Virus record (IMG/VR): IMGVR_UViG_3300042991_000159 | Span: 1 to 64,000 of that record | Reading direction: 5' to 3' (one strand) | Length of the DNA: 64,000 nt | Source of the DNA: a virus | Shown: piece after piece, positions 10,659 through 38,653 of the stretch | How the letters are laid out: each line of letters opens with the position of its first letter | Numbering within the stretch: position 1 is the stretch's first letter | Position numbers and translations under genes: made by a program | Notes under the pieces: model-generated | The model's input: the letters and a program-made list of their open reading frames with translations, nothing else | The model's database searches: none | What the model was told of the DNA's origin: nothing

Positions 10659-11459
10659 ATGGCAAGAAGAATCAATAATGATGGAGGATATAGTAGAGCT
10701 ATGAACGCTCTTGTTCCTGCACGTACAGAATCGTATTCACCTGTTCCTCATTCTTATTTTTTGGAAACTGTTCAAAATGTAATTGGAGCAAGAGGTGATT
10801 TAGAAGTAACAGGAAACAGAATTTACACAAACCTGAATGGTGAAAAACTCGTAGGTTTTACAACAGTAAAATTCAGAGGAATGGAAGTTGATCCTGAGTT
10901 TGGTCTTGAGATGATGTTAGGATACAAAAACAGTTATGATAAATCAATGGCTGCTGCTCTCGTAGCAGGAGCAAGTGTAATGATTTGCAGTAACGGTTGT
11001 ATTGGTGGAGATATGCTTACTTTTAAGCGTAAACACACCGGAACCATCGAAGAAGAACTCGTTGAAAAAACAGCATTAGCTGTTAATTGTATGAGAGACG
11101 GATTTGCTAATCTGGTACTGGAAGTTGACATAATGAGAGATTATGCACTTACCCCAAGACAGAAAGCAGAACTTCTCGGTATTATGTACTTTGAAGAAGA
11201 TATGGTATCTCCTAATCAACTTTCGATTATTAAAAAAGAGATAATAAATTCTAATCATTTTAGAGGTAACACCCTCTGGGATTTGTATAATAATGTAACC
11301 GAGTCTCTCAAGTCTTCTCATCCTCTTTCACATATAGAGGACCACATTAAGCTTCATCGGTTTATGTGTGGTGTCGCAGGTATATTACCAGAAGAAATAG
11401 GAGAAGTACACGAGATGGTAGAAGAAAGTGAACAAAATGAAGCAACAATTGAAGGATAA
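10659..11459 (+). CDS. DUF932-like phage protein
   Basis: YSPVPH, NSYDKS, G..VMICSNG, KHTG and TLWDLYNNVTE motifs. Confidence 0.75.
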   Translation: MARRINNDGGYSRAMNALVPARTESYSPVPHSYFLETVQNVIGARGDLEVTGNRIYTNLNGEKLVGFTTVKFRGMEVDPEFGLEMMLGYKNSYDKSMAAALVAGASVMICSNGCIGGDMLTFKRKHTGTIEEELVEKTALAVNCMRDGFANLVLEVDIMRDYALTPRQKAELLGIMYFEEDMVSPNQLSIIKKEIINSNHFRGNTLWDLYNNVTESLKSSHPLSHIEDHIKLHRFMCGVAGILPEEIGEVHEMVEESEQNEATIEG

Positions 11460-12135
11460 ATTTTCTAGTTTGTTTGGCTTGGAGTGGTACGATGCTTTGA
11501 AAGAGGTATTGGAATCTAAGTATTGGAGAGAGATTGGTGCAAAGATAGCTAAGGAGAGAGAGATTTACACCATATACCCGGAGAAGGGTTCTGATACTTT
11601 ATTTAAGGCTTTCCGTACCACTCCTTTATCTCAAGTGAAAGTAGTTATTCTTGGTCAAGACCCTTATCATGATGGTAGTTATGATGGGTTTGCGTTCTCT
11701 AACAGAGACGATGGTCAACATATATCACCTTCACTTAAGAACATTCTGAAAGAAGTTGAAACTGATGTATATAGTGGATTCTATCTTGATTTGAATCCCG
11801 ATCTTGAAAGATGGGCAGAACAGGGAGTTCTTCTTATTAATACAGCACATACTGTACGAAAGGGAGACCCCGGTTCCCATTTGGAGTATTGGAAACCTTT
11901 CACAAATAAGGTATTATTATTGCTACAGCAGCAAGATAGACCGATTGTGTGGATATTGTGGGGTAAGAAGGCAGAAAATGCTGTTGCGGCAGTAAAAAAG
12001 AACGATAAGCATTTATATTTGTCTTCTCCGCACCCTTCTCCTTTCTCAGCTAATTCAGGGTTCTTTGGTAGTAAACCTTTTAGTCAAACAAATAAATTTC
12101 TAACAGATGGTAAACTACAATCAATTAACTGGTAA
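11428..12135 (+). CDS. ung: Uracil-DNA glycosylase (family 1)
   Basis: GQDPYH, SPSLKNI, WAEQGVLLIN, LWG, HPSP and GFFGSKPFS motifs. Confidence 0.95.
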   Translation: MNKMKQQLKDKFSSLFGLEWYDALKEVLESKYWREIGAKIAKEREIYTIYPEKGSDTLFKAFRTTPLSQVKVVILGQDPYHDGSYDGFAFSNRDDGQHISPSLKNILKEVETDVYSGFYLDLNPDLERWAEQGVLLINTAHTVRKGDPGSHLEYWKPFTNKVLLLLQQQDRPIVWILWGKKAENAVAAVKKNDKHLYLSSPHPSPFSANSGFFGSKPFSQTNKFLTDGKLQSINW

Positions 12136-12274
12136 TAGTTCTTATTTTCCAAATTCTTTTAATCTAGAACAACAGCGATTAAATGAGAAAATTTTATCAA
12201 AAATTCGAAAAGAGTTGATAACAGAACAAATAACAGATGAAGAAATATATTATTCACTAATAAAATAATAAAAA

Positions 12275-12580
12275 ATGGCAAACGCACTGGTAAAATTCTG
12301 GGAAAGTATCGAAAAAACAGGAGATGCTATTAAAGCTGCAAGATCAGCACGTTCAGTTCAACGTAAAGCTGAAATGGATGTATCAAAAGCATTCGATGAA
12401 CTTGAAGAAGTTAAAGGAAAGCTTGAAAAAGCTAAAATTGATGCTAAAAATAACGTGGAAACAGGTTTTAAAAATATATACGAAGCCTTTATGAGCGTTA
12501 AAGTTAAGCAACAACGCTTTAATGATGCAGTCACCGTTTATAAGGAACTTTTCGAAGAAGAACCAAAATTACTTTACTAA
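12275..12580 (+). CDS. Hypothetical helical protein
   Basis: Clean ORF with an A-rich initiation region. Confidence 0.7.
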   Translation: MANALVKFWESIEKTGDAIKAARSARSVQRKAEMDVSKAFDELEEVKGKLEKAKIDAKNNVETGFKNIYEAFMSVKVKQQRFNDAVTVYKELFEEEPKLLY

Positions 12581-12583
12581 TGT

Positions 12584-12614
12584 ATTGTATATTATACAAA
12601 AAGTATTATTTTTG
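12584..12614 (+). promoter_or_regulatory. Bacteroidota-type promoter P1 for tRNA block 1
   Basis: -7 element TATTTTTG (12607-12614) and -33-like TTG (12585-12587) with a 19-nt spacer. Confidence 0.65.
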
Positions 12615-12632
12615 TATAAGTAATTACACGTT

Positions 12633-12695
12633 ATGAAAGTTACAACATTACATTTGCTTCCAGAGGAACCGTCTAAACAGAGGGTACTGGAATAA
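12633..12695 (+). CDS. Attenuator leader peptide 1, MKVTTLHLLPEEPSKQRVLE
   Basis: Translated by hand; the run LHLLPEEP matches the downstream Pro/Glu/His/Leu/Leu tRNAs. Confidence 0.8.
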   Translation: MKVTTLHLLPEEPSKQRVLE

Positions 12696-12729
12696 TTGTG
12701 GCTTTGATAAAAAGCTGAATATAACGCAG

Positions 12730-12771
12730 GAACCCTCTTAGTAACACCGGACTAAGGGGGTTCTTTTTTTT
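12730..12771 (+). terminator. Attenuator terminator 1
   Basis: 13-bp stem GAACCCTCTTAGT/ACTAAGGGGGTTC plus T8, ending 2 nt before tRNA-Pro. Confidence 0.9.
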
Positions 12772-12773
12772 AT

Positions 12774-12846
12774 CGGAATGTAGCGCAGTTGGTAGCGTAC
12801 CTGCTTTGGGAGCAGGGGGTCGCAGGTTCGAATCCTGCTATTCCGA
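12774..12846 (+). tRNA. tRNA-Pro(TGG)
   Basis: Cloverleaf folded by hand; CCTGC-TT TGG GA-GCAGG. Confidence 0.95.
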
Positions 12847-12872
12847 CAAATGGCACTAAATAATTCCGTATT

Positions 12873-13010
12873 ATGGCAACAATTAAGACAAAATCAGAAA
12901 GAGTAAAACAAGGTAAGAGAAACCGAAAAGGAATCCATGCCAAAACTCGTAACAGTAAAATAAAAGGATCGAAACATTACGAGAAAGCGTACAAAGGTCA
13001 AGGACGTTAG
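12873..13010 (+). CDS. 45-aa basic protein ending YKGQGR
   Basis: Unannotated ORF MATIKTKSERVKQGKRNRKGIHAKTRNSKIKGSKHYEKAYKGQGR. Confidence 0.7.
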   Translation: MATIKTKSERVKQGKRNRKGIHAKTRNSKIKGSKHYEKAYKGQGR

Positions 13011-13030
13011 GTTAAACCTGATGTTATCAT

Positions 13031-13102
13031 GCCCCGTTCATCTAGTGGTTAGGATAGCAGATTTTCAGTCTGTTCACAAGAGTTCGATTCTCTTACGGGG
13101 TA
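13031..13102 (+). tRNA. tRNA-Glu(TTC)
   Basis: Cloverleaf; GCAGA-TT TTC AG-TCTGT. Confidence 0.9.
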
Positions 13103-13249
13103 CTATTTAACTTGATATGTACTTTCAGGAAAACCTTCTTGAATAGCAGCATTAAGTTCATTCTTAAATAAGTCATAATCAACTATTTTATTAGTTGTCG
13201 AACAACTTGTTAGAACGATTAATAAAAATATTATAGGTATCTTTCTCAT
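13103..13249 (-). CDS. 48-aa small lipoprotein
   Basis: MRKIPIIFLLIVLTS-C16-STTNKIVDYDLFKNELNAAIQEGFPESTYQVK: basic N-terminus, hydrophobic core, lipobox LTSC. Confidence 0.65.
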   Translation of the reverse strand: MRKIPIIFLLIVLTSCSTTNKIVDYDLFKNELNAAIQEGFPESTYQVK

Positions 13250-13314
13250 AAGGTAAAATTAATACACATATATTACAATATGATTAAGAAGAAATTAAGA
13301 TTGCAATAATATAT

Positions 13315-13386
13315 GGTGTTTGTAGCTCAACGGTAGAGTGCCTGATTGTGGATCAGGTGGTGACAGTTCGATCCTGTCCTTACACC
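13315..13386 (+). tRNA. tRNA-His(GTG)
   Basis: G-1:C73, CCTGA-TT GTG GA-TCAGG; two T-T mismatches in the acceptor stem. Confidence 0.9.
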
Positions 13387-13390
13387 CTAT

Positions 13391-13476
13391 GCTCCGGTGG
13401 TGAAATTGGCAGACGCACTGGACTTAAAATCCAGCGATCAGTAATGATCGTACCGGTTCGATTCCGGTTCGGAGTA
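13391..13476 (+). tRNA. tRNA-Leu(TAA)
   Basis: Long variable arm; CTGGA-CT TAA AA-TCCAG. Confidence 0.95.
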
Positions 13477-13495
13477 CTAACTAAAAATTTTTATT

Positions 13496-13951
13496 ATGAA
13501 AATAAACAAAAAGAAGGTAGTTGAACTATCAAGGGATTGGTTTAAAGCGTACCATTGTCCAGATCAGTTTTGGAATGATTTTGCAGAAAAGATTGACGAA
13601 ATTTACTCAGCAGGGGAAGAGGTGAGTGATGAAGAGGAGAGCGAAGAAGAGGGTAGAATTGCAACTGCCATTTTAGATGCCATTAATTCTGGACTGTGGA
13701 AATGGGAGTACAAGAAAAAATTATCACCCGATGATGCGTTTGACTTGCTTACCTGTTTGCAAGATCAAATCCTTAAGGTTAAACTCACCCGCCCTGCCAT
13801 ATCGGAGGAGGAGATAGATCAGTTGACAGAAGAGGTTATATGCGGATTAAAAGCAGGTGATAGAGTATTACCTGAGTTTTATTTCAGGCTCGGAATAGAA
13901 GCCATTAAGGAACTAACTAAAATTAAGCAAGATGAAAACAATAAAATTTGA
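13496..13951 (+). CDS. Hypothetical protein
   Basis: ORF track; no motif. Confidence 0.6.
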   Translation: MKINKKKVVELSRDWFKAYHCPDQFWNDFAEKIDEIYSAGEEVSDEEESEEEGRIATAILDAINSGLWKWEYKKKLSPDDAFDLLTCLQDQILKVKLTRPAISEEEIDQLTEEVICGLKAGDRVLPEFYFRLGIEAIKELTKIKQDENNKI

Positions 13952-14153
13952 AATCGTAAAGGAAATTGAACCAAGTGGTAAAGTATGGTTTCATGTAAGA
14001 ATGAATGGAAGTCATCAAACGGCTAATAGAAGCTATGAGGAAGCTAAAAGAAGTTTGGAAACCTGTAAAACGAATGTGGTTAAATGGGGATATGAAAAGT
14101 ATGAAGAGGTTATTTTTTCAGAATTAGTTGACACATAAAGCCATTAAGGAACT
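13899..14153 (+). repeat. 16-bp direct repeat AAGCCATTAAGGAACT flanking a small ORF
   Basis: Copies at 13899-13914 and 14138-14153. Confidence 0.8.
13932..14138 (+). CDS. Hypothetical protein
   Basis: ORF lying between the direct repeats. Confidence 0.6.
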   Translation: MKTIKFEIVKEIEPSGKVWFHVRMNGSHQTANRSYEEAKRSLETCKTNVVKWGYEKYEEVIFSELVDT

Positions 14154-14276
14154 TAACAGATAAGAGAAGGAAATATTGCATAGATAGTTGAATAAAATAA
14201 GAATAAGTGTGCAATTATTTACTATTTTAATAAGAGCCAAAACACGGAATAAAACAACGCCAAAATACGGAACTAT

Positions 14277-14375
14277 ATGGAAAACACAGACGCAATAATA
14301 TTAATAGGTGGATTTTTATATCTATTATTTTTTGTATGGATGCCTTCAAGTTATGACGATAGAAGAGAAAAATGA
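14277..14375 (+). CDS. 32-aa single-pass membrane peptide
   Basis: MENTDAIILIGGFLYLLFFVWMPSSYDDRREK; ATGA overlap with the next ORF. Confidence 0.5.
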   Translation: MENTDAIILIGGFLYLLFFVWMPSSYDDRREK

Positions 14376-14893
14376 TTAATTGGATAAAATGGAAACAGTT
14401 GATAGCTGGACATACAGCTAAATTAAAAATAAGAATAGTTGTTTCTTACATATCTGTTGGTGATGGTAATGGTGATTTAGCATATAATACATGTAGAGAA
14501 ATCATTGATCGAAATGAAAAAGGTGCATTTGCACACATGGCTCTTGAAGAAGTATTCAGATATCTTGAAAAAGGTTGGAGATGGCCTGATTATATGAATG
14601 ATATAATCCATTCAGGAATGCATAAACAAACAGATATGACTCAAGACCCTTGGATACTTGCATATTGTTGCGCTGTACACCTAGATCGCTATGACCTAAT
14701 AGAGAGATATAGACCTAACTTCTGGTTGTTTCTGCCCGACAAGTGGGCTTGGAGAAGATCACTACTTGGAAAGGTAAACTTCTATTGGCTATGGCGAAGA
14801 ATAACACCTTACAAATGGATGCAACATTTTGTTTATGTATTTTATGGATACATGGAGCTTGCATATAAGAATAAAGTTGTACCTTTACATTGA
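14372..14893 (+). CDS. Hypothetical Trp-rich protein
   Basis: ORF track. Confidence 0.6.
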   Translation: MINWIKWKQLIAGHTAKLKIRIVVSYISVGDGNGDLAYNTCREIIDRNEKGAFAHMALEEVFRYLEKGWRWPDYMNDIIHSGMHKQTDMTQDPWILAYCCAVHLDRYDLIERYRPNFWLFLPDKWAWRRSLLGKVNFYWLWRRITPYKWMQHFVYVFYGYMELAYKNKVVPLH

Positions 14894-14919
14894 ATTTTAA
14901 CCGTTAAAATTATATAAGC

Positions 14920-15369
14920 ATGAAGAAAGTAACAAACGTTTTTAAAGTATTTTTATCGTTAGTTTTACTAATGGTGGTAGGAATTGTAGCATTTGGTCAA
15001 ACAACTGTTCCAACTATTCCAGATTGGACCGACCTCTATGAAAACTACGGTGTATATTTTGCTACTGCTGGTGGAATTGCTGGTATTGCAATGTTCTTAG
15101 GTGAACTCGTAATTCGAGTATTGAAGCTAGCTGTAAAATGGCAAAAAGTAGCTATAATTTGGGTACTATCAGTTGTGGCATCATTTGTAGGTGCATTTGT
15201 GCTCAACGTAGGTTATTTAGCAGAAGCAACATGGTGGGAAACTGTTATATGGGGAGTTTTCTCAGGATTGTTAGCTAATGGTATATGGTCTAGTAACGTA
15301 GCGTTCATTAAATCAATTCTTGAATTTCTCGTTGAGCTTATCAAAGCTAAAATTCCTGCAACAGTATAA
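14920..15369 (+). CDS. Multi-pass membrane protein, holin-like
   Basis: Signal-like N-terminus (AFG/Q), three further hydrophobic helices, GLLANG motif. Confidence 0.55.
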   Translation: MKKVTNVFKVFLSLVLLMVVGIVAFGQTTVPTIPDWTDLYENYGVYFATAGGIAGIAMFLGELVIRVLKLAVKWQKVAIIWVLSVVASFVGAFVLNVGYLAEATWWETVIWGVFSGLLANGIWSSNVAFIKSILEFLVELIKAKIPATV

Positions 15370-15399
15370 AAACTTTAGGGGTGAAATGCCCCCTTTTAC

Positions 15400-15481
15400 G
15401 CTCTTGTGGGGGAATTGGCAGACCCGCTAGTCTTAGGAACTAGTGTCGAAAGGCGTGTCAGTTCGAGTCTGACCGAGAGTA
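15400..15481 (+). tRNA. tRNA-Leu(TAG)
   Basis: Long variable arm; CTAGT-CT TAG GA-ACTAG. Confidence 0.95.
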
Positions 15482-15517
15482 TGATTTTAAATGTTAACAT
15501 TAAAAAAACAATCAGTT

Positions 15518-15697
15518 ATGAACGCAAGAAAATCAGCAGTGTTATTTGCACTTGGAATTGTATGGTTAGGTGCTGTTATATGGGGTTTTGCTCATGGAGT
15601 ACAACAAACTGAAGTTGGTGCTAAAATCGCTTGGATTGGTGGATCATTAGTATTTACAGCTTTAGGTGTATTTCTTTCTTACAAATTGAAAAAATAA
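15518..15697 (+). CDS. Small two-helix membrane protein
   Basis: MNARKSAVLFALG...; two hydrophobic segments; ATG at 15518 preferred over 15491. Confidence 0.65.
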   Translation: MNARKSAVLFALGIVWLGAVIWGFAHGVQQTEVGAKIAWIGGSLVFTALGVFLSYKLKK

Positions 15698-15715
15698 AGT
15701 ATATACAAAGAAAAA

Positions 15716-15746
15716 TTTGTTTTTCTCGAAAAAGGAGTTAAATTTG
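15716..15746 (+). promoter_or_regulatory. Bacteroidota-type promoter P2 for tRNA block 2
   Basis: Consensus match: TTTG (15716-15719), 19-nt spacer, TAAATTTG (15739-15746). Confidence 0.8.
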
Positions 15747-15770
15747 TATTGTACTTAAATTTTTAACACA

Positions 15771-15848
15771 ATGTTAGTTCGATTTAGATATACGAAATAT
15801 TCAAGTTGCAAGGGCACATCCTCTGCAAGATGGGACTTCTATATCTAA
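15771..15848 (+). CDS. Attenuator leader peptide 2, MLVRFRYTKYSSCKGTSSARWDFYI
   Basis: Translated by hand; the 15-codon run RFRYTKYSSCKGTSS matches all ten downstream tRNAs. Confidence 0.85.
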   Translation: MLVRFRYTKYSSCKGTSSARWDFYI

Positions 15849-15893
15849 CTAAAAGAAAATTTTTTATTTTTCATTGTTCAGATTTTGTGATCT

Positions 15894-15925
15894 AAGTCCC
15901 ATTCTTAAACGAGTGGGACTTTTTT
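15894..15925 (+). terminator. Attenuator terminator 2
   Basis: 11-bp stem AAGTCCCATTC/GAGTGGGACTT plus T tract, ending 3 nt before tRNA-Thr. Confidence 0.9.
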
Positions 15926-15928
15926 ATT

Positions 15929-16001
15929 GCCACTGTAGCTCAGTTGGTAGAGCTGTTCACTTGTAATGAACGGGTCGGGGGTTCGATTCCTCTCGGTGGC
16001 T
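15929..16001 (+). tRNA. tRNA-Thr(TGT)
   Basis: Cloverleaf; GTTCA-CT TGT AA-TGAAC. Confidence 0.95.
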
Positions 16002-16029
16002 CAAGTTTAACTTAAAATTCTTTGACGTT

Positions 16030-16524
16030 ATGGCAGTATATTTTATAAATAGTAATGGTATGCATATTAGTAGATCAACGATAGGTCTTATTGATAGTAA
16101 TCAATATAATGTGCAAGTTGGTATTTTACATGGTCCTAACGAAGGATATAAACTTTCGTTTGATGGAGAGATAATTAGAGAACAATTACCATTAAACGAA
16201 TTTATAGTAAGATTAATCGAGGGAGAAACGATTGATAAAAATGGTCCAGAAATACATCGTGATATTCAAACTGTAATTAATGCTTTAAATCGTGGAAAAA
16301 AAGAAGAGATAGAAGCAGTAGCTAGATGGTTAGATCATAGATATTCTAATTTAATAAGAAACGGGAAAATAATATTAATGCAGCATACTTATCGACATTC
16401 TTATTATAGTGAAAGTATTGGTAGCAGAGAGAGGTCTATTCAACAGTCTCAACCTATGACAACAGATGAAGCATATCAAAAATCAGTAACAGATGATGAA
16501 GTCTATTACACAATGATTAAATAA
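16030..16524 (+). CDS. Hypothetical protein
   Basis: ORF track. Confidence 0.65.
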   Translation: MAVYFINSNGMHISRSTIGLIDSNQYNVQVGILHGPNEGYKLSFDGEIIREQLPLNEFIVRLIEGETIDKNGPEIHRDIQTVINALNRGKKEEIEAVARWLDHRYSNLIRNGKIILMQHTYRHSYYSESIGSRERSIQQSQPMTTDEAYQKSVTDDEVYYTMIK

Positions 16525-16525
16525 C

Positions 16526-16599
16526 GCCTCTATAACTCAGTTGGCTAGAGTACCACCCTTTTAAGGTGGGAGTCCTGCGTTCAAGTCGCAGTGGGGGTA
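16526..16599 (+). tRNA. tRNA-Lys(TTT)
   Basis: CCACC-CT TTT AA-GGTGG. Confidence 0.95.
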
Positions 16600-16602
16600 C
16601 AA

Positions 16603-16668
16603 TTAATGACTAATATATTAGTCATTAAGTACCAAAATAAGGCTTAATGACTAATATATTAATCATTA
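16603..16668. repeat. Tandem palindromes
   Basis: Perfect 26-bp palindrome TTAATGACTAATATATTAGTCATTAA (16603-16628) and a near copy at 16644-16668. Confidence 0.85.
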
Positions 16669-16669
16669 T

Positions 16670-16743
16670 ACACACGTAGTTCAACTGGATAGAATAGGTG
16701 GCTACGGACCATCTGGTTGTGGGTTCGAGTCCTACCGTGTGTA
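16670..16743 (+). tRNA. tRNA-Arg(ACG)
   Basis: GGTGG-CT ACG GA-CCATC. Confidence 0.95.
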
Positions 16744-16759
16744 CTAAAAATTAAAAATT

Positions 16760-16891
16760 ATGATACGTAAAATTAGAAAATATATCTACGATAAAAATGA
16801 AGTTAGAAAAATAGCTGGTACTTTTAATCCTTATATTCCATATGAGAAGAGAAAAATAATGGCTATGAGATATTTAGAAATGCATAAATAA
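16760..16891 (+). CDS. 43-aa basic hypothetical protein
   Basis: MIRKIRKYIYDKNEVRKIAGTFNPYIPYEKRKIMAMRYLEMHK fills the gap between two tRNAs. Confidence 0.5.
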   Translation: MIRKIRKYIYDKNEVRKIAGTFNPYIPYEKRKIMAMRYLEMHK

Positions 16892-16892
16892 T

Positions 16893-16965
16893 GGAGCAGT
16901 AGCTCAGTCGGTAGAGCACCAGACTGAAAATCTGGGTGTCGGCAGTTCAATTCTGTCCTGTTCCA
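16893..16965 (+). tRNA. tRNA-Phe(GAA)
   Basis: CCAGA-CT GAA AA-TCTGG. Confidence 0.95.
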
Positions 16966-17037
16966 CATTTAAGAAGTAGTGCAGTTTCGTAGTGGCGGGT
17001 TCTGCGCTCGAAAGAGAACCAAAAAACCCATACCCAT

Positions 17038-17111
17038 GCGGGTTTAGCTCAATTTGGCAGAGCGTCTGCCTTCCAAGCAGAGGGTTGAGAGTTCGAGTCT
17101 CTTGATCCGCA
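17038..17111 (+). tRNA. tRNA-Gly(TCC)
   Basis: TCTGC-CT TCC AA-GCAGA. Confidence 0.95.
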
Positions 17112-17113
17112 CT

Positions 17114-17273
17114 AAAGTATCACTATCAGCATAGGGATTGCCCTAATGTTCTGAGAGAGTGAACGGTTTGGGATTTTGTAAAAAGAATCACTTATTAAGG
17201 CTCTTCTGAGACATTCAAGGAACTCGTAATGTAGTCTTCGGGGAAAGCGGTAGGACTCCGTAAGTGATACTTT
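17114..17273 (+). ncRNA. Unidentified structured RNA (about 160 nt)
   Basis: 11-bp closing stem AAAGTATCACT/AGTGATACTTT with internal hairpins; GC-richer than its surroundings; lies between two tRNAs. Confidence 0.55.
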
Positions 17274-17285
17274 TTAAAATATAAT

Positions 17286-17369
17286 GGGTCGGTGGCTGAG
17301 TGGTTAAAGGCGTTGGACTGTAAATCCAATCGTGTCATGCGTTCGGGGGTTCGAATCCCTCCCTGCCCA
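17286..17369 (+). tRNA. tRNA-Tyr(GTA)
   Basis: Long variable arm; TTGGA-CT GTA AA-TCCAA. Confidence 0.95.
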
Positions 17370-17373
17370 CAAT

Positions 17374-17444
17374 GGTTCTATGTCCGAGTGGCTAGGTCAC
17401 TGTCTGCAAAACAGTTTACACTGGTTCGAGTCCAGTTAGAACCT
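17374..17444 (+). tRNA. tRNA-Cys(GCA)
   Basis: ACTGT-CT GCA AA-ACAGT; U73 discriminator. Confidence 0.95.
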
Positions 17445-17463
17445 CTAACTAAAAATAAGAAAT

Positions 17464-17682
17464 ATGAATTTATACATGGTAGAATTTGACACTACAACTT
17501 ATATAGTCGTGGCAAAAGATGAAGAAGATTTACTTGATCTCTTACACAAAAGAGATTCTGGTTTCCAAAAAGAAGTAGATAGAGGTATTGTTTATATGTG
17601 GGATTTAAGAACTATAGACCCTGTTGAAGTAACTGTTATAAACCAAGATAAACCAAAAATAGTATTTGTCGTATCCCATTAA
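17464..17682 (+). CDS. Hypothetical protein
   Basis: ORF between tRNAs. Confidence 0.65.
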   Translation: MNLYMVEFDTTTYIVVAKDEEDLLDLLHKRDSGFQKEVDRGIVYMWDLRTIDPVEVTVINQDKPKIVFVVSH

Positions 17683-17688
17683 AGTATT

Positions 17689-17772
17689 GGAAGTAATCTG
17701 GCTGGATGAAGGACTGCTCTTGAAAAGCAGTAATACAGTGATGTATTGTGGGTTCGAGTCCTACTGCTTCCG
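17689..17772 (+). tRNA. tRNA-Ser(TGA)
   Basis: Long variable arm, G73; CTGCT-CT TGA AA-AGCAG. Confidence 0.9.
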
Positions 17773-17777
17773 CATAT

Positions 17778-17854
17778 GCATCTGTAGCTCAGTTGGACAG
17801 AGCAACGCCCTTCTAAGGCGTGGGTCAACCGTTCGAATCGGTTCAGGTGTACCA
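17778..17854 (+). tRNA. tRNA-Arg(TCT), encoded CCA
   Basis: ACGCC-CT TCT AA-GGCGT. Confidence 0.95.
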
Positions 17855-17856
17855 CT

Positions 17857-17940
17857 GGAAGTATTCTCCTAAATGGTAAAGGTCCACCCTGCTAAGGTGG
17901 TGTCATTCGTGGCATATAGGTTCGATTCCTGTTACTTCCG
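17857..17940 (+). tRNA. tRNA-Ser(GCT)
   Basis: Long variable arm; CCACC-CT GCT AA-GGTGG; atypical D arm. Confidence 0.9.
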
Positions 17941-17972
17941 CTAACTAAATTATTAATTTAAGAGAGAAAAAA

Positions 17973-18662
17973 ATGAAAACATCAGTAAACATGATTCGTA
18001 AGATAGGTATGTTCGAAATCGAACAACGAACTTTCGATGGATATTTTGAAGCAAATATGTTACTTCAACAATGGAATAGAGTTAAACAGAATACACCAAA
18101 AAAAATAGTTGAATTTCTAAGAAATGAAAAAACAATTGAGTTTATTAAACAAATTAAGAAAGAAGAAGGTATTTATAACTCATTGATACACAGTAGGGGA
18201 GAAAAATCACCAACTGATAATCAAGTAGTTATAATAATCAAAGGAAGAAGAACAAAAAAAGGTCCAACACCAGATCGTGTATTTATGCATCCTTATTTAT
18301 TTGTTGATTTTGCAATGTGGTTAAATCCTAAATTCAAATATCATGTAATTAAATTTGTTTACGATTCGTTAATGGATTATAGAAATAATGCAGGAGATTT
18401 ATATAAAGGACTTTCTCAATCTGTCAGTACACTTACAAATATAAGTTACGCTAGAGTAGGCAAAGGTTTGAATTTCATTGTATTTGGTGAGCATAAAAAA
18501 GGAATTCGTAATACTGGAACAGTTGAACAATTACAGGAACTTAACGATATTCAAAAACAATTAGCGTTTAGTATTGAAATGGGACTTATCACTTCTTTTA
18601 AAGAATTAATGGATACCATGATAAAAATATATAGAAAAAAGCAAAAATTTAATTTATTTTGA
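17973..18662 (+). CDS. KilA-N domain DNA-binding protein
   Basis: QRTFDGYFEAN.LL and MHPYLFVDFAMWLNPKF motifs. Confidence 0.85.
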   Translation: MKTSVNMIRKIGMFEIEQRTFDGYFEANMLLQQWNRVKQNTPKKIVEFLRNEKTIEFIKQIKKEEGIYNSLIHSRGEKSPTDNQVVIIIKGRRTKKGPTPDRVFMHPYLFVDFAMWLNPKFKYHVIKFVYDSLMDYRNNAGDLYKGLSQSVSTLTNISYARVGKGLNFIVFGEHKKGIRNTGTVEQLQELNDIQKQLAFSIEMGLITSFKELMDTMIKIYRKKQKFNLF

Positions 18663-18670
18663 TAACTTTG
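18663..18670 (+). promoter_or_regulatory. Bacteroidota-type -7 promoter element P3 for tRNA block 3
   Basis: TAACTTTG matches TAnnTTTG; no clear -33 element. Confidence 0.55.
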
Positions 18671-18692
18671 TCTTATAATATTTCAAACTTTA

Positions 18693-18797
18693 ATGATCAT
18701 GGCAAAGAAATCAGGTAATAAATCGGCTCCCAAAGATAAAGGAATGGGACAAGGTAAAAAAGGTTCTGGTAAAAAAGGATCATGCAAAAGAAAATAA
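18693..18797 (+). CDS. 34-aa Lys/Gly-rich basic peptide
   Basis: MIMAKKSGNKSAPKDKGMGQGKKGSGKKGSCKRK; stop is 1 nt before leader 3. Confidence 0.6.
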   Translation: MIMAKKSGNKSAPKDKGMGQGKKGSGKKGSCKRK

Positions 18798-18798
18798 A

Positions 18799-18879
18799 AT
18801 GATGAAAACATTAGTTATTAATATATGGAACCAAATTGATGTGGATCAGGCGATCTACAATCAGGGAACTATGTATTAA
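18799..18879 (+). CDS. Attenuator leader peptide 3, MMKTLVINIWNQIDVDQAIYNQGTMY
   Basis: Translated by hand; the 14-codon run VINIWNQIDVDQAI matches all eight downstream tRNAs. Confidence 0.85.
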   Translation: MMKTLVINIWNQIDVDQAIYNQGTMY

Positions 18880-18906
18880 AAAAACCTTTTGAACTATTCA
18901 ACATAG

Positions 18907-18938
18907 AACCCTGATTCCCCTAAGAGTCAGGGTTTTTT
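18907..18938 (+). terminator. Attenuator terminator 3
   Basis: 11-bp stem AACCCTGATTC/GAGTCAGGGTT plus T tract, ending 3 nt before tRNA-Val. Confidence 0.9.
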
Positions 18939-18941
18939 ATT

Positions 18942-19016
18942 GCTTCTTTAACTCAGTTGGTTCAGAGTGCAATTTTTACAAGATTGAAGTCGGTGGTTCG
19001 AATCCATCAAGAAGCA
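18942..19016 (+). tRNA. tRNA-Val(TAC)
   Basis: CAATT-TT TAC AA-GATTG. Confidence 0.9.
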
Positions 19017-19094
19017 CTATCGCATAGAGGTTTGCATGATGTGGAGTCTTCCTCTCGTTAAACAAAAAAATGGTTACAGGGATGTGGCCGCCAC

Positions 19095-19167
19095 GGGGAT
19101 TTAGCTCAGTTGGAAGAGCACTTGATTTGCACTCAAGAGGTCATCGGTTCGACTCCGTTAATCTCCA
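19095..19167 (+). tRNA. tRNA-Ala(TGC)
   Basis: G3:U70 identity pair; CTTGA-TT TGC AC-TCAAG. Confidence 0.95.
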
Positions 19168-19212
19168 CTAAGTAATGTTCATTGACGTATTGTTTAATTA
19201 AAATTATTTTAT

Positions 19213-19626
19213 ATGGTAGAAAAATTAAAAGTCTACACTGCTGGTGGATTTCATGGTGATTGGAGAGAACGAATAAACAAAATTCTTGCAGAGAAATTTA
19301 TTGTTCTTGATCCTTTCAGTAAGGAATTTGATTCTTCTAAAGGTGAACGTAAACATTTATCATATGAGGAATATACAGTTTGGGATTTATGGGCAATTAG
19401 AACAGCAGATATAGTATTTGTATACTCTCAACGTACTAATCCCGGTCAAGGTTATATAGTTGAAGCTGGATATGCTAAAGGACTTGGTAAAACTGTTATT
19501 CTTGTAAGAGAAGAAAACAATGAACATATGCCTGACAAATATCTGAATTTTATTGATTGTGTAGCAGATTTTGTTTGCCACGATTTCAATGAAGGTGTTG
19601 AGTTTCTTACCAGACTTTCACTTTAA
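19213..19626 (+). CDS. Nucleoside 2-deoxyribosyltransferase-like protein
   Basis: VYTAGG, DLWAIRTADIV and G...EAGYAKGLGK motifs. Confidence 0.8.
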   Translation: MVEKLKVYTAGGFHGDWRERINKILAEKFIVLDPFSKEFDSSKGERKHLSYEEYTVWDLWAIRTADIVFVYSQRTNPGQGYIVEAGYAKGLGKTVILVREENNEHMPDKYLNFIDCVADFVCHDFNEGVEFLTRLSL

Positions 19627-19634
19627 AAGAATAA

Positions 19635-19708
19635 TGCCTTGTAGCTCAGTCGGTTAGAGCAGTGGACTGTTAATCCAAAGGTCGTAAGTTCAAGTCTTAC
19701 CGAGGCAG
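19635..19708 (+). tRNA. tRNA-Asn(GTT)
   Basis: GTGGA-CT GTT AA-TCCAA; G73. Confidence 0.95.
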
Positions 19709-19710
19709 CT

Positions 19711-19827
19711 ACTCTCTATATCTCGGATCACGCCCTGAAATGGGAACCGTGGCTGGTATCCACTATAAACTACTACCGGAACAAGTGATTGGATAACTTT
19801 ACGTTTGCGGGATTTGATATAGAGAGT
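19711..19827 (+). ncRNA. Unidentified structured RNA (about 117 nt)
   Basis: 12-bp closing stem ACTCTCTATATC/GATATAGAGAGT; exactly fills the spacer between two tRNAs. Confidence 0.55.
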
Positions 19828-19832
19828 TTTAT

Positions 19833-19906
19833 TGACCCTTAGCACAGATGGTTAGTGCAATTCGCTCATAACGAAAAGGTCGTGTGTTCGATTCACACAG
19901 GGTCAA
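19833..19906 (+). tRNA. tRNA with CAT anticodon (Ile2/lysidine-type or elongator Met)
   Basis: ATTCG-CT CAT AA-CGAAA; paired 1:72. Confidence 0.9.
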
Positions 19907-19951
19907 CAATTTTTCGTATCTTGTAAGCTTAACCAAGTAAAATTTTAAATC

Positions 19952-20755
19952 ATGTGTTTTAAAAACTTATTTAATAGACCTGAGAAACCAGAATTACATC
20001 CTGCAAGACGAGCATTATTATTTGGAATAAACGATTATCCCGGTAGTAGCAGTGATCTAAATGGTTGCGTTAACGATGTTTATGACGTTAAAGAAAAATT
20101 AGATTCTCTTTATCCAGATTTTGTAACAAAAATGTTTACGGATGTAAATGCTACAATATCTACTTTTGAATACGAACTTGCAAAAGAAATTGAAAAACTT
20201 CAAGCAGGAGATGTTTTATTAGTTCATTATTCTGGTCACGGTACTTATGTAACTGATAAGAGTGGTGATGAAGAGGATGGATACGATGAAGCTCTTTATC
20301 TTTATGACGGACCATTAATTGACGATGATATTCGTGGTATGCTAGAAGGTATTCCAGATGGTGCAACGGTAGTACTCATATTTGATTGCTGTTATTCTGG
20401 TACAATTAGCAGATCGGTGTTACCCAAGATAGAAAAAAACCGATTTTACCCAAATCCTGTTAGTAAAAAAAGTACTGGTTCTTTAAAAATAAGAAACAGA
20501 TTTGCGAAAGGTGATAATATGAGATGGATAACATTCTCAGGGTCAGATGAACATCAGACAAGTGCAGATGCTTATATTGATGGAAAATATAATGGAGCAT
20601 TTACATATTTCTTATTAAAATATCTTAAACCGGGAATTACTTATAAACAATGGGCAAACTATGTAAGCGAAGCCTTTGAAAATTCTCGTTTTGAACAAAG
20701 ACCTCAAATAGAAGGACCGGAAGGATTATTAAATAACTTAATATTTTACATTTAA
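19952..20755 (+). CDS. Caspase-like cysteine protease (peptidase C14, metacaspase-type)
   Basis: ALLFGINDY, LNGCVND, HYSGHG and FDCCYSG dyad motifs, QTSADA, GAFT, QRPQ. Confidence 0.92.
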   Translation: MCFKNLFNRPEKPELHPARRALLFGINDYPGSSSDLNGCVNDVYDVKEKLDSLYPDFVTKMFTDVNATISTFEYELAKEIEKLQAGDVLLVHYSGHGTYVTDKSGDEEDGYDEALYLYDGPLIDDDIRGMLEGIPDGATVVLIFDCCYSGTISRSVLPKIEKNRFYPNPVSKKSTGSLKIRNRFAKGDNMRWITFSGSDEHQTSADAYIDGKYNGAFTYFLLKYLKPGITYKQWANYVSEAFENSRFEQRPQIEGPEGLLNNLIFYI

Positions 20756-20764
20756 TATAATATT

Positions 20765-21217
20765 ATGAGAATAATAAAAAGAATTGATCCTTTTTTAAAG
20801 AATGTAGATATAGATAAACTACTTTCAAAATGGTTTCCAGAAATGGAAGAGGATAAAAAAAGAAACATTAAGAGTGAAATATTTAAAAATATTCATTCGA
20901 TTAGAACATTTTGGTATGATAATCCTGATCTTAGATTTTCTCAAGTGCTAATTAATAGTAATTTGATTCCTAATTATCCTGGGATGTGGTACTACTATGA
21001 AGAAGATGAAATCCTTATAGATCAAGGACATGAACTAAGAGATATACTCTTTTGGGGAAGAAATTACAATAAGGAAATGGAACGTCTTCCAAGGACAGAA
21101 TGGATTTTAATCAAGGACATGAGTACTGATCATATTCAGGCTGTCTTAGACGGTGAATTTACCACACACTCAGATTATTTAAAAGCATTTAATGACGAAT
21201 TAGAAAGAAGAAAATAA
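20765..21217 (+). CDS. Hypothetical phage protein
   Basis: W..NPDLRFSQ and IKDMSTDHI motifs recur in phage hypotheticals. Confidence 0.7.
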   Translation: MRIIKRIDPFLKNVDIDKLLSKWFPEMEEDKKRNIKSEIFKNIHSIRTFWYDNPDLRFSQVLINSNLIPNYPGMWYYYEEDEILIDQGHELRDILFWGRNYNKEMERLPRTEWILIKDMSTDHIQAVLDGEFTTHSDYLKAFNDELERRK

Positions 21218-21224
21218 TAATTAC

Positions 21225-21297
21225 TGGTGTGTAGTTCAGTTGGTAGAATAGTGCTCTCCAAAAGCAAAGGTCGGGAGTTCGAGTCTCTCCATGCCAG
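21225..21297 (+). tRNA. tRNA-Trp(CCA)
   Basis: GTGCT-CT CCA AA-AGCAA. Confidence 0.95.
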
Positions 21298-21304
21298 CAA
21301 ATAT

Positions 21305-21377
21305 AGCCTCTAGGTCAAACGGTTAAGATGTCAGCCTGTCACGCTGTACGGAGCGGGTTCAACTCCCGTAGGGGCTG
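21305..21377 (+). tRNA. tRNA-Asp(GTC)
   Basis: TCAGC-CT GTC AC-GCTGT; G73. Confidence 0.9.
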
Positions 21378-21429
21378 CTATATTTAAAAACATATAATTA
21401 GCATCAAATATGTTATTTTATATGCAAAT

Positions 21430-21503
21430 GCTCATGTAACTCAGTTGGTTAGAGAGCCTCTCTGATAAGGAGGAAGTCGGTAGTTCAAATCTATCCATGA
21501 GCA
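21430..21503 (+). tRNA. tRNA-Ile(GAT)
   Basis: CCTCT-CT GAT AA-GGAGG. Confidence 0.95.
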
Positions 21504-21517
21504 CTATTTAAAAAGTA

Positions 21518-21583
21518 AAGGGAAGATCGGTCCGATTCCGAAGCAGAGTAATCTGTACTAGTGTAATGGCTATGCACACCCTT
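21518..21583 (+). ncRNA. Circularly permuted tRNA-like element (T arm, capped acceptor stem, D arm)
   Basis: AAGGG, TCGG-TCCGATT-CCGA, GCAGA-GTAA-TCTGT, TA-GTGT-AATGGCTAT-GCAC-A, CCCTT. Confidence 0.55.
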
Positions 21584-21588
21584 GTCAT

Positions 21589-21662
21589 TGACTCATGGTG
21601 TAACAGGTTAACACGTGGCACTTTGGATGCTAAGAGTCTCCGTTCGAGTCGGAGTGAGTCAA
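21589..21662 (+). tRNA. tRNA-Gln(TTG)
   Basis: U1:A72; TGGCA-CT TTG GA-TGCTA. Confidence 0.95.
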
Positions 21663-21686
21663 CTATATTAACTAAAAACAAAATGT

Positions 21687-22214
21687 ATGAAAGTATTACG
21701 TCTTATTTTGACGAGAAAATGTAATCGTAGTTGTGAGAGATGTTGCAACAAACAAGACGCTTTTGTTGAAAACCGTGTTCCTAATATTCTTGAACTTGGT
21801 TATAATTTTAGTGATTTTGATACAATTATTCTTACAGGTGGTGAACCATTGCTTGAATTTGACTCTCTTAAATTAACGATAGCTTTAATTAGAAAAGTTA
21901 GTCCAGATTCAAAGATTATTGTGTACACAGCGAATGTTCAAATGAAAGATGAAATCATTGAACTACTATATCTTGTAGATGGAATTACTGTAACAGTACA
22001 CGAACAAGAAGATGTTGATGATTTTAATCGCCTAAACTTTTGGATGCTTCGATTGAAGCGTTACAAAATAGATAATAATAAAACTTTGCGACTTAATATA
22101 TTTAAAGGTGTTAAAATATATATGCAAAACTCAAGTCTCTGGAAGATAAAAGATAACATAGAATGGATCGAAGATTGTCCATTGCCAGAGAACGAAATAA
22201 TTGCACAATATTAA
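21687..22214 (+). CDS. Minimal radical SAM protein
   Basis: CNRSCERC (CxxxCxxC) and LTGGEP. Confidence 0.85.
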   Translation: MKVLRLILTRKCNRSCERCCNKQDAFVENRVPNILELGYNFSDFDTIILTGGEPLLEFDSLKLTIALIRKVSPDSKIIVYTANVQMKDEIIELLYLVDGITVTVHEQEDVDDFNRLNFWMLRLKRYKIDNNKTLRLNIFKGVKIYMQNSSLWKIKDNIEWIEDCPLPENEIIAQY

Positions 22215-22222
22215 CATTTTTA

Positions 22223-22253
22223 TTGTGTATATTAATTTAAAGTGTTAGATTTG
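22223..22253 (+). promoter_or_regulatory. Bacteroidota-type promoter for the last tRNA
   Basis: TTG (22223-22225), 20-nt spacer, TAGATTTG (22246-22253). Confidence 0.6.
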
Positions 22254-22264
22254 TTAATGTATAT

Positions 22265-22338
22265 TGCGAGTTGGCGCAGATGGTCAGCGCACAAGATTCA
22301 TGATCTTGGGGTCACGGGTTCGAGTCCCGTACTCGCTA
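22265..22338 (+). tRNA. tRNA-Met(CAT), initiator-like
   Basis: T1.T72 mismatch, TGCGAG acceptor; CAAGA-TT CAT GA-TCTTG. Confidence 0.9.
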
Positions 22339-22417
22339 CAAAACTTATTATTTGGTTCATAGCAATAATGTTTTAGGTTAGTGATTATTTGGTTAAGTGA
22401 GAGTAGTGAGAATGAAG

Positions 22418-22445
22418 AAGGAGAGCTGGTTGGCTCTCCTTTTTT
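22418..22445. terminator. Terminator between convergent transcription units
   Basis: AAGGAGAGCT/GGCTCTCCTT stem plus T tract. Confidence 0.85.
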
Positions 22446-22473
22446 ATTTCCCTTACGAAAAAATTTACCGTTA

Positions 22474-38652: not shown

Positions 38653-38653
38653 A

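Follow-up and report, generated by a model that had tools for sequence, protein, structure and literature searches.

The window considered here, a 64,000-nt stretch that comprises positions 1 to 64,000 of the IMG/VR record IMGVR_UViG_3300042991_000159, derives from an uncultured crAss-like phage. ARAGORN predicted 24 tRNA genes, without exception on the plus strand and spanning 12774-22339 of the window; read as 23 elongator species and one initiator-like tRNA, they might conceivably amount to a near-complete minimal decoding set. The strongest three plus-strand terminator-like sites within 12-23 kb (12728-12765, 15894-15921 and 18905-18936; stems of -15 to -21 kcal/mol according to a separate custom terminator finder) each possess a T-tract that runs up to the first tRNA of a block. 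Upstream of each block-opening terminator lies one small ORF (20, 25 and 26 codons), and upstream of each of these leaders we found TAnnTTTG, a Bacteroidota-type -7 promoter motif. The resulting modules, and the tRNA that closes the array, are composed as follows.

12607..12614, plus strand: candidate -7 promoter motif TAnnTTTG, 18 nt 5' of the leader 1 ATG
12633..12695, plus strand: leader ORF 1, 20 codons and stop; rank 1 of 761 small ORFs for block-1 codons
12648..12671, plus strand: putative regulatory run 1, 8 codons (Leu His Leu Leu Pro Glu Glu Pro)
12678..12690, plus strand: region 2 of module 1 (predicted antiterminator strand), pairs with the terminator 5' arm; duplex -15.1 kcal/mol
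12728..12773, plus strand: intrinsic terminator 1, stem 12728-12765 and T-tract; tRNA-Pro begins at 12774
12774..15481, plus strand: block 1, tRNA-Pro(tgg), Glu(ttc), His(gtg), Leu(taa), ~1.9 kb of ORFs, Leu(tag)
15739..15746, plus strand: candidate -7 promoter motif TAnnTTTG, 24 nt 5' of the leader 2 ATG
15771..15848, plus strand: leader ORF 2, 25 codons and stop; rank 1 of 761; homologue in L066
15780..15824, plus strand: putative regulatory run 2, 15 codons, samples 10/10 block-2 tRNAs
15828..15839, plus strand: region 2 of module 2; 10/12 nt pair with the terminator 5' arm in the duplex fold
15894..15928, plus strand: intrinsic terminator 2, stem 15894-15921 and T-tract; tRNA-Thr begins at 15929
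15929..17941, plus strand: block 2, tRNA-Thr, Lys, Arg(acg), Phe, Gly, Tyr, Cys, Ser(tga), Arg(tct), Ser(gct)
18663..18670, plus strand: candidate -7 promoter motif TAnnTTTG, 128 nt 5' of the leader 3 ATG
18693..18797, plus strand: 34-codon ORF rich in Lys/Gly/Ser, between promoter motif and leader 3
18799..18879, plus strand: leader ORF 3, 26 codons and stop; rank 1 of 761; homologues in L066, L068, L073, L074
18814..18855, plus strand: putative regulatory run 3, 14 codons, samples 8/8 block-3 tRNAs
18858..18873, plus strand: region 2 of module 3, pairs with the terminator 5' arm; duplex -14.4 kcal/mol
18905..18941, plus strand: intrinsic terminator 3, stem 18905-18936 and T-tract; tRNA-Val begins at 18942
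18942..21663, plus strand: block 3, tRNA-Val, Ala, Asn, CAT-anticodon, Trp, Asp, Ile(gat), Gln
22265..22440, plus strand: last tRNA (CAT anticodon, U1.U72 mismatch; ARAGORN) and end-of-array terminator 22419-22440 (terminator finder)

Three leader ORFs, terminators and tRNA blocks had been placed at these positions by a sequence-only reading, and all of them were found. The same reading had set a TAnnTTTG promoter before each leader, which holds at close range for leaders 1 and 2 (18 and 24 nt), whereas the motif of module 3 lies 128 nt away with the 34-codon ORF in between. The stop codon of this ORF sits 1 nt 5' of the leader 3 ATG; it is missing from the related phages and matched no Pfam family. 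The module 3 motif is homologous to one located 9 nt 5' of the leader ATG in the relatives L066 and L073. Since TAnnTTTG is not enriched within the window (91 observed vs 82 expected), the backing for these candidate promoters is purely positional. Small ORFs are interspersed among the tRNAs of block 2, and block 3 also encodes a deoxyribosyltransferase-like protein, a caspase-like peptidase and a protein of 150 aa. Regarding block 1, we infer that Leu(tag), 1.9 kb downstream, also belongs under leader 1, because the intervening DNA contains neither a promoter motif nor a strong terminator.

The codon content of the leaders mirrors the tRNAs encoded behind them. Counted against blocks 1/2/3, leader 1 contains 10/6/3 matching codons, leader 2 1/18/5 and leader 3 1/6/18, and the longest own-block runs extend over 8, 15 and 14 codons (P = 1.9e-5, 1.1e-5 and 1.6e-5, computed from the codon usage of the phage itself and corrected for position). 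Of the earlier rough estimates (about 1e-5, 1e-5 and 1e-7), that for leader 3 was too optimistic. The claim that every tRNA of a block is sampled by its own run was correct throughout (5/5, 10/10 and 8/8); run 2 includes codons of both Arg and both Ser isoacceptor families, and one ATA codon of run 3 was assigned to the CAT-anticodon tRNA. That the runs are read by own-block tRNAs holds at full length if each U34 tRNA reads its whole codon box, as the figures of 8, 15 and 14 presuppose, but under strict wobble rules the runs drop to 4, 11 and 13 codons. When the 761 small ORFs of the 99.8-kb genome that hosts the modules were ranked by their longest run of a given block's codons, the leader of that block came first in each case. 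Of 300,000 partitions of the tRNAs drawn at random, not one equalled the observed fit, and the cut defined by the terminators was the best among 231 contiguous cuts of the tRNA gene order. Most tRNAs are sampled by just one to three codons, whereas the his and leu leaders use more, so sensitivity to a mild shortage may be low.

The predicted RNA folds are in line with a transcriptional switch, yet only while the transcript is growing. In the minimum-energy folds, each module forms a 1:2 hairpin within the leader ORF and the 3:4 terminator (z of -4.9 to -5.5). Duplex energies upheld, for all three modules, the proposition that a segment near the leader end is complementary to the terminator 5' arm: this region 2 ends 3-6 nt 5' of the stop codon (3 nt in modules 1 and 3, 6 nt in module 2), within the footprint of a ribosome at the leader stop, and its duplex of -14.4 to -15.1 kcal/mol (-14.8 in module 2) was equalled by at most 4/400 random windows (4/400 for module 1, 1/400 for each of the others). 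Folding with and without a ribosome footprint, which the sequence-only reading had suggested as a check, gave different outcomes for nascent and complete RNA. In nascent folds, with region 4 not yet made, the antiterminator forms as long as the A site is within the codon run and is lost past the run end, that is at codon 13 (leader 1), 16-17 (leader 2) and 17-18 (leader 3). At equilibrium with the whole terminator present, however, the terminator prevails at every ribosome position (P >= 0.78); mutual exclusion of antiterminator (2:3) and terminator (3:4) hence applies to nascent folds only. The switch would therefore have to be kinetic, as in trp, and we assume such behaviour below. Besides, in truncated RNA without a ribosome the antiterminator is already partly formed (0.34-0.74), so that the state without translation would not terminate cleanly.

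We consider it likely, with a probability of roughly 80%, that these elements are three trp-type ribosome-mediated transcription attenuators in series, each gating one tRNA-containing operon. From the host-type promoter, transcription would start and the polymerase would enter the short leader ORF. Upon quick translation, the ribosome at the stop codon would cover region 2, allowing the 3:4 terminator hairpin to form and the transcript to end at the T-tract just 5' of the first tRNA. If any one of the downstream-encoded tRNA species were scarce, the ribosome would stall within the codon run and leave region 2 free to capture the terminator 5' arm while its 3' partner is still untranscribed; this antiterminator would let the polymerase continue across the tRNA block with the protein genes embedded in it, and the fresh phage tRNAs would relieve the stall and close a negative feedback loop. 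Production of phage tRNAs would thus probably be confined to times when the ribosomes lack them. That the leaders are translated, which way and how strongly the system responds and what triggers it physiologically are all predictions of this model. At the sequence level, the earlier proposal of trp/his-type attenuation is supported: the layout, the matched codons, the region 2 pairing and the nascent-fold switching, which are all the points that could be checked, came out as it predicts. The modules display the hallmarks of attenuators (a short leader ORF behind a promoter motif, a terminator before the first tRNA, enrichment of cognate codons and a 2:3 antiterminator), but their targets, tRNAs and assorted phage ORFs, fall outside the classical scope of amino-acid biosynthesis enzymes and aminoacyl-tRNA synthetases. 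The tRNA genes as targets are the new element, which has no bearing on the mechanism.

Further evidence came from related phages, five of which contain nine further such modules. Leaders 2 and 3 are kept among L066, L068, L073 and L074, where all substitutions in the runs stay within the block's codon set and the flanking codons vary freely. Region 2 and the 5' arm change in concert, e.g. CAGAGG with CCTCTG in L073, and the two are complementary in 11/11 modules tested (the three described here and eight in relatives). Leader 1 has no homologue in the relatives' contigs because these stop short of its locus. In L063, the tRNAs are divided otherwise, into 16 and 8, and its leaders cover 16/16 tRNA classes in 21 codons (P = 4e-5) and 8/8 in 10 codons. 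L083 distributes isoacceptors between blocks and the leader codons match: leader A, which precedes Ile(tat) and Arg(acg), contains four ATA codons and CGA, and leader B, which precedes Ile(gat) and Arg(tct), contains ATT and AGA. The relation between leader codons and tRNA content in homologous arrays had been named beforehand as a test, and its outcome was positive in that leaders follow differing partitions. The cultured phage crAss001 carries a tRNA array in which no such modules were found; the design is therefore not universal.

These comparisons also weigh on other explanations. The modules could be real attenuators that, like classical ones, respond to the supply of amino acids or to overall translation capacity (charged tRNA); the protein genes within the blocks would then be the targets and the tRNAs passengers. 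An attenuator cannot distinguish a missing from an uncharged tRNA, and each block does contain protein genes (those named encode a KilA-N protein, the caspase-like peptidase and the deoxyribosyltransferase-like protein). However, the leaders track the tRNAs of a block rather than its proteins, the isoacceptor matching in L083 (ATA vs ATT, CGA vs AGA) is not predicted by amino-acid sensing, and the L063 arrays, nearly devoid of protein genes, have the same kind of leaders, which renders this alternative improbable. Less likely still, the terminators might be ordinary leaky ones that end upstream operons and permit a fixed, low tRNA transcription, the ORFs being untranslated and their codons an accident or a by-product of RNA structure. 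Each terminator indeed also lies downstream of a preceding gene block whose transcripts it could end, and the equilibrium folds always retain the terminator; yet the first rank of each leader and the random partitions, the substitutions that preserve the codon set, and the differing partitions followed in L063 and L083 speak against coincidence, and a promoter motif 5' of each terminator is expected for an attenuator but not for the end of an operon. We regard pyrBI-type coupling, in which a ribosome close behind the polymerase melts the terminator and fast translation gives read-through with opposite polarity, as the least plausible candidate: although a leader ORF followed by a terminator is common to pyrBI, the leaders do not extend into the hairpin but stop 26-45 nt 5' of the terminator 5' arm, out of reach for a ribosome at the stop codon, and all 11 tested modules have a separate region 2 complementary to that arm.

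Leader-peptide attenuators are known for amino-acid operons (trpL, hisL, leuL, pheL) and for pheST, with thrL and ilvL being multivalent. The phage modules share with them the promoter, the short leader with regulatory codons, the 1:2/2:3/3:4 pairing, the terminator before the first gene and the coverage of region 2 by the terminating ribosome, and, as in thr and ilv, a single leader would report several amino acids. Unlike those systems, they would regulate tRNAs, such that the sensed molecule is the product; their leaders are heteropolymeric, with 5 to 16 tRNA species sampled roughly once apiece, and do not repeat a single codon; and they are phage-borne, with three sensors in series that jointly cover 23 tRNA species. 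Phage tRNAs can replace host tRNAs that are degraded or cut by anticodon nucleases, which gives phages a reason to encode nearly all tRNA species. To our knowledge, studies in that field concern the presence and sequence of the tRNAs and not a demand-sensing control of their transcription. A counter-defence rationale against anticodon nucleases (PrrC, PARIS) is a guess on our part, and sequence evidence for such a link is not present. Similarly tentative, and on balance doubtful as a whole, is the wider notion of a three-channel 'decoding homeostat' that would sense the loss of single tRNAs at anticodon resolution, e.g. through host anticodon nuclease cleavage or host tRNA decay, and answer with replacement tRNAs and embedded proteins, the caspase-like peptidase, KilA-N and deoxyribosyltransferase-like genes thereby joining a stall-induced counter-defence regulon.

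Our literature search retrieved no published account of leader-peptide attenuation controlling tRNA genes. A partial parallel is the trn operon of Anabaena sp. PCC 7120, a 26-gene tRNA array induced under translational stress and controlled at the promoter, where direct repeats are bound by the repressor TrcR (PMC8421152, PMC10272220). There, too, a silent accessory tRNA array is switched on when translation is impaired, but the system is cellular and its control promoter-level, whereas the array here is phage-borne; the words 'attenuat', 'leader' and 'terminator' are absent from the main text of the 2021 trn paper. T-box riboswitches likewise couple tRNA status to terminator read-through, yet they need no translation and bind uncharged tRNA directly, by means of the T-box sequence and a specifier codon, whereas the phage codons reside in a translatable ORF. 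A T-box was rejected as a candidate for lack of a covariance-model match when 11000-24000 was scanned against Rfam (E up to 1). In that scan, neither the His, Leu, Thr and Trp leaders nor Bacteroid-trp matched, nor did any cis-regulatory family; the matches were to the tRNA clan at the tRNA genes, along with a few chance matches far below threshold. One of these, to the sRNA SpF19, overlies the leader 1 terminator region (26.7 bits vs a gathering score of 60).

It has long been asked why phages carry tRNA genes and at what point they use them, and here the matter becomes directly testable with perturbations at the codon and tRNA level. If real, a sensor of decoding speed for the downstream tRNAs' own codons would imply feedback-controlled synthesis of phage tRNAs on demand, extending classical attenuation to a case where the product is the sensed molecule. 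A terminator adjoining a tRNA, together with an upstream mini-ORF that samples the array's anticodons, could serve as an annotation signature, and such leaders might be of use in synthetic biology as compact, programmable 'codon-shortage' switches. At the far end of the array, the last CAT-anticodon tRNA has its own TAnnTTTG 12 nt upstream and probably escapes leader control.

The tRNA array analysed here lies in an IMG/VR virus record of 99,795 bp that is rated complete and whose first 64 kb make up the window. A near-identity DNA search with the phage sequence found no match among GenBank phages. Downstream of the array, a 1,338-codon ORF (22474-26490, minus strand) adjoins a 4,072-codon ORF (26494-38712, minus strand), and the only named relatives of the former, at distant similarity, carry the annotation 'RNA-polymerase subunit' in crAss-like phages (IAS virus, cr111_1). 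Together with a strand split that puts replication and virion genes on opposite strands, this ORF pair and its relatives mark the virus as a distant, environmental crAss-like phage, whose host is presumably a member of the Bacteroidota. The genome has 24 tRNA genes, all on the plus strand within 12774-22339. They form a near-minimal set for decoding, in which each codon box or half-box has one tRNA and 20/20 amino acids are represented.

The sequence-only reading had proposed that this array is divided into three blocks, each headed by a leader ORF and a terminator, and our ORF and terminator scans bear this out:

12633-12695, plus strand, leader ORF 1
12728-12765, plus strand, terminator 1
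15771-15848, plus strand, leader ORF 2
15894-15921, plus strand, terminator 2
18799-18879, plus strand, leader ORF 3
18905-18936, plus strand, terminator 3
22419-22440, plus strand, end-of-array terminator (hairpin-plus-T-tract finder)

Terminators 1 to 3 were the top three plus-strand sites in a consensus scan of 12-23 kb, and the separate hairpin-plus-T-tract finder recovered all of them, with energies of about -15 kcal/mol. The T-tract of each runs up to a block's first tRNA, a block being the group of tRNAs from one of these terminators to the following one. Leader 1 holds 10, 6 and 3 codons read by tRNAs of blocks 1, 2 and 3, respectively, leader 2 holds 1, 18 and 5, and leader 3 holds 1, 6 and 18. 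The longest unbroken runs of own-block codons comprise 8, 15 and 14 codons, full lengths that rest on whole-box reading by U34 tRNAs. As had been claimed, each run samples every tRNA of its own block, with only one to three codons per tRNA.

Such a match is hard to attribute to chance. With phage codon usage (fractions of 0.19, 0.41 and 0.39 for blocks 1, 2 and 3) and all positions allowed, the run P values are 1.9e-5, 1.1e-5 and 1.6e-5 for leaders 1, 2 and 3, and each leader takes the top rank for its block among 761 ORFs (ATG-started, 12-45 codons, six frames, whole genome). Given the run, full coverage of the block's tRNAs has a P of 0.19, 0.003 and 0.09, respectively. In random splits of the 23 tRNAs into groups of 5, 10 and 8, with the leaders kept fixed, the observed fit was reached in 0 of 300,000 trials. 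Besides, the cut defined by the terminators was the best of 231 three-block contiguous cuts of the real gene order; the terminator positions can thus be 'predicted' from the leaders.

Each leader has a minimum-energy fold with a hairpin inside the ORF (regions 1:2) followed by the terminator (3:4), at z-scores of -4.9 to -5.5. Region 2, the antiterminator strand, is 12-16 nt long and ends 3-6 nt upstream of each stop codon, and so falls within the stretch that a terminating ribosome would cover. Its duplex with the terminator 5' arm (region 3) amounts to -14.4 to -15.1 kcal/mol, a value equalled by at most 4 of 400 random genome windows. Folding around a ribosome footprint, which had been suggested as a check, gave a switch in nascent RNA only. 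In equilibrium folds of the full leader with the complete terminator, a 30-nt footprint at any position never displaced the terminator, and any switch must therefore be kinetic, as in trp. Folds of nascent RNA, restricted to what is present before the 3' arm is synthesized, did switch: the 2:3 antiterminator was present with the A site anywhere in the run and was lost past it, the loss falling at codon 13 for leader 1, codons 16-17 for leader 2 and 17-18 for leader 3. Thus, the 3' edge of the run is where a stalled ribosome would start to cover region 2. In the free truncated RNA, the antiterminator is already partly formed. Coupling of the pyrBI type can be ruled out, since the leader ORFs stop 26-45 nt upstream of the hairpin.

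Relatives were sought with the 1,338-aa neighbour protein as anchor. The single protein found no match in IMG/VR, and an alignment of the anchor found 63 loci there, with a large tRNA array in one only (L063); the closest relatives came from a metagenome scan. Modules are retained in four metagenome contigs that share the tRNA order: leaders 2 and 3 in one of them (L066), leader 3 in the others (L068, L073, L074). Compared codon by codon, all in-run substitutions among these relatives stay within the block's codon set (e.g. Val/Ile/Asn, Asp/Ile, Val/Ala), and the two versions of leader 2 each keep codons of both Arg and both Ser families. Variation is free in the opening few codons of the leaders and in their region 2 part, and region 2 and the terminator 5' arm change together. 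As indels misalign the arms in the five-sequence alignment A2, pairing was tested per sequence by duplex folding rather than by alignment columns. In all eight modules tested among these and the more distant relatives, region 2 is complementary to its own, different terminator arm and is found no more than 10-12 nt from the stop codon, or overlapping it.

Two more distant phages, L063 and L083, partition their tRNAs differently. The blocks of L063 hold 16 and 8 tRNAs, counting one Gly tRNA found by Infernal alone and one weakly supported Tyr tRNA. Its leader for the larger block covers 16/16 tRNA classes in 21 codons (P 4e-5), that for the smaller block 8/8 in 10 codons (P 0.003; run P 5.5e-6). 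A description of L083 as one imperfect module was rejected in favour of two modules that include three divergent tRNAs, accepted at relaxed ARAGORN thresholds and less certain for having escaped Infernal at E up to 5. In its leader A, a 12-codon run spans 6/6 block tRNAs (P 4.7e-8). This leader contains four ATA codons and CGA, with Ile(tat) and Arg(acg) downstream; leader B contains ATT and AGA, with Ile(gat) and Arg(tct) downstream. Such isoacceptor-level tracking favours tRNA species, not amino acids, as what the leaders sense. The anticipated relation between leader codons and tRNA content in homologous arrays is seen for leaders 2 and 3 and in the two distant phages. The divergent tRNAs of both phages, missed by default ARAGORN and missed or weakly scored by Infernal, are the following:

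8524-8595, L083 (reverse-complement coordinates), His tRNA, relaxed ARAGORN
9133-9202, L083 (reverse-complement coordinates), CAT-anticodon tRNA, relaxed ARAGORN
9374-9444, L083 (reverse-complement coordinates), Trp tRNA, relaxed ARAGORN
9562-9640, L063, type-II Tyr tRNA

Their presence was predicted by the leader peptides. Four other IMG/VR relatives carry 0-5 tRNAs each, and no leader was found in a relative with three tRNAs (L004/G002). Upstream of the array of cultured crAss001 (MH675552, 1682-5807) there is neither a strong terminator nor a codon-matched leader, and the design is therefore not universal in Crassvirales.

Classical ribosome-mediated attenuation, with the tRNAs themselves as the regulated genes, is the best-supported reading of these modules, and the proposed trp/his-type logic finds support at the sequence and comparative level. 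Scarcity of any tRNA species of a block would stall the ribosome within the run, the antiterminator would form and the block would be transcribed; restored tRNA supply would shut it off again. As there is no strong terminator between a block and the next leader, transcripts from upstream would run into the next attenuator too, and the three would act in series. The modules resemble the trp, his, thr and ilv attenuators in working and in structure, yet an Rfam scan gave no match to a leader, T-box or other known cis-regulatory family, and full-text searches of the literature turned up no description of tRNA genes controlled by leader peptides. Among published regulated tRNA arrays, the Anabaena trn operon comes nearest; its control acts at the promoter, through the repressor TrcR (PMC8421152, PMC10272220).

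If the attenuators work as proposed, protein genes embedded in or following the blocks would be co-induced with the tRNAs:

17973-18662, plus strand, KilA-N gene
19213-19626, plus strand, nucleoside 2-deoxyribosyltransferase-like protein gene
19952-20755, plus strand, caspase-family peptidase C14 gene
21687-22214, plus strand, small radical-SAM / 4Fe-4S protein gene

The TAnnTTTG motif that heads the modules showed no enrichment as a genome-wide promoter signal. The last tRNA (22246-22339, plus strand, tRNA from 22265), which has a CAT anticodon, a U1.U72 mismatch and the unusual anticodon loop UUCAUGA, carries its own TAnnTTTG 12 nt upstream and may be an initiator expressed independently of the leaders; a place outside leader control would then be fitting, as stalled elongation gives no report on an initiator. 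A further TAnnTTTG lies 25 nt upstream of the other CAT-anticodon tRNA, within the 123-nt spacer that separates it from tRNA-Asn (19710-19832, plus strand; closed by a 12-bp stem, z = -3.2), and could be an internal promoter in block 3.

Between the module-3 promoter motif and leader 3 lies a Lys/Gly/Ser-rich ORF of 34 codons (18693-18797, plus strand), whose stop is 1 nt upstream of the leader 3 ATG. All 14 codons at its C-terminal end belong to block 2, the joint second-longest such run in the genome. It is absent from L066, L068 and L073, where the promoter motif is 9-22 nt upstream of the leader, and could either make module 3 responsive to the supply of block-2 tRNAs or have arisen by chance as a low-complexity ORF. 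In block 1, a very basic 45-codon ORF without a Pfam family (12873-13010, plus strand) lies between tRNA-Pro and tRNA-Glu, and a 48-codon ORF with a lipoprotein-like N-terminus (13103-13249, minus strand) between tRNA-Glu and tRNA-His. Transcription of the latter would oppose block 1; a sigma-70-like match (10/12) is found just upstream on its strand. Finally, the spacer between tRNA-Lys and tRNA-Arg(acg) (16601-16669, plus strand) holds two copies of an AT-rich, near-perfect palindrome of ~24 nt that folds at -28 kcal/mol (z = -10.4); it could serve for protein binding or stem from the insertion of a small element.
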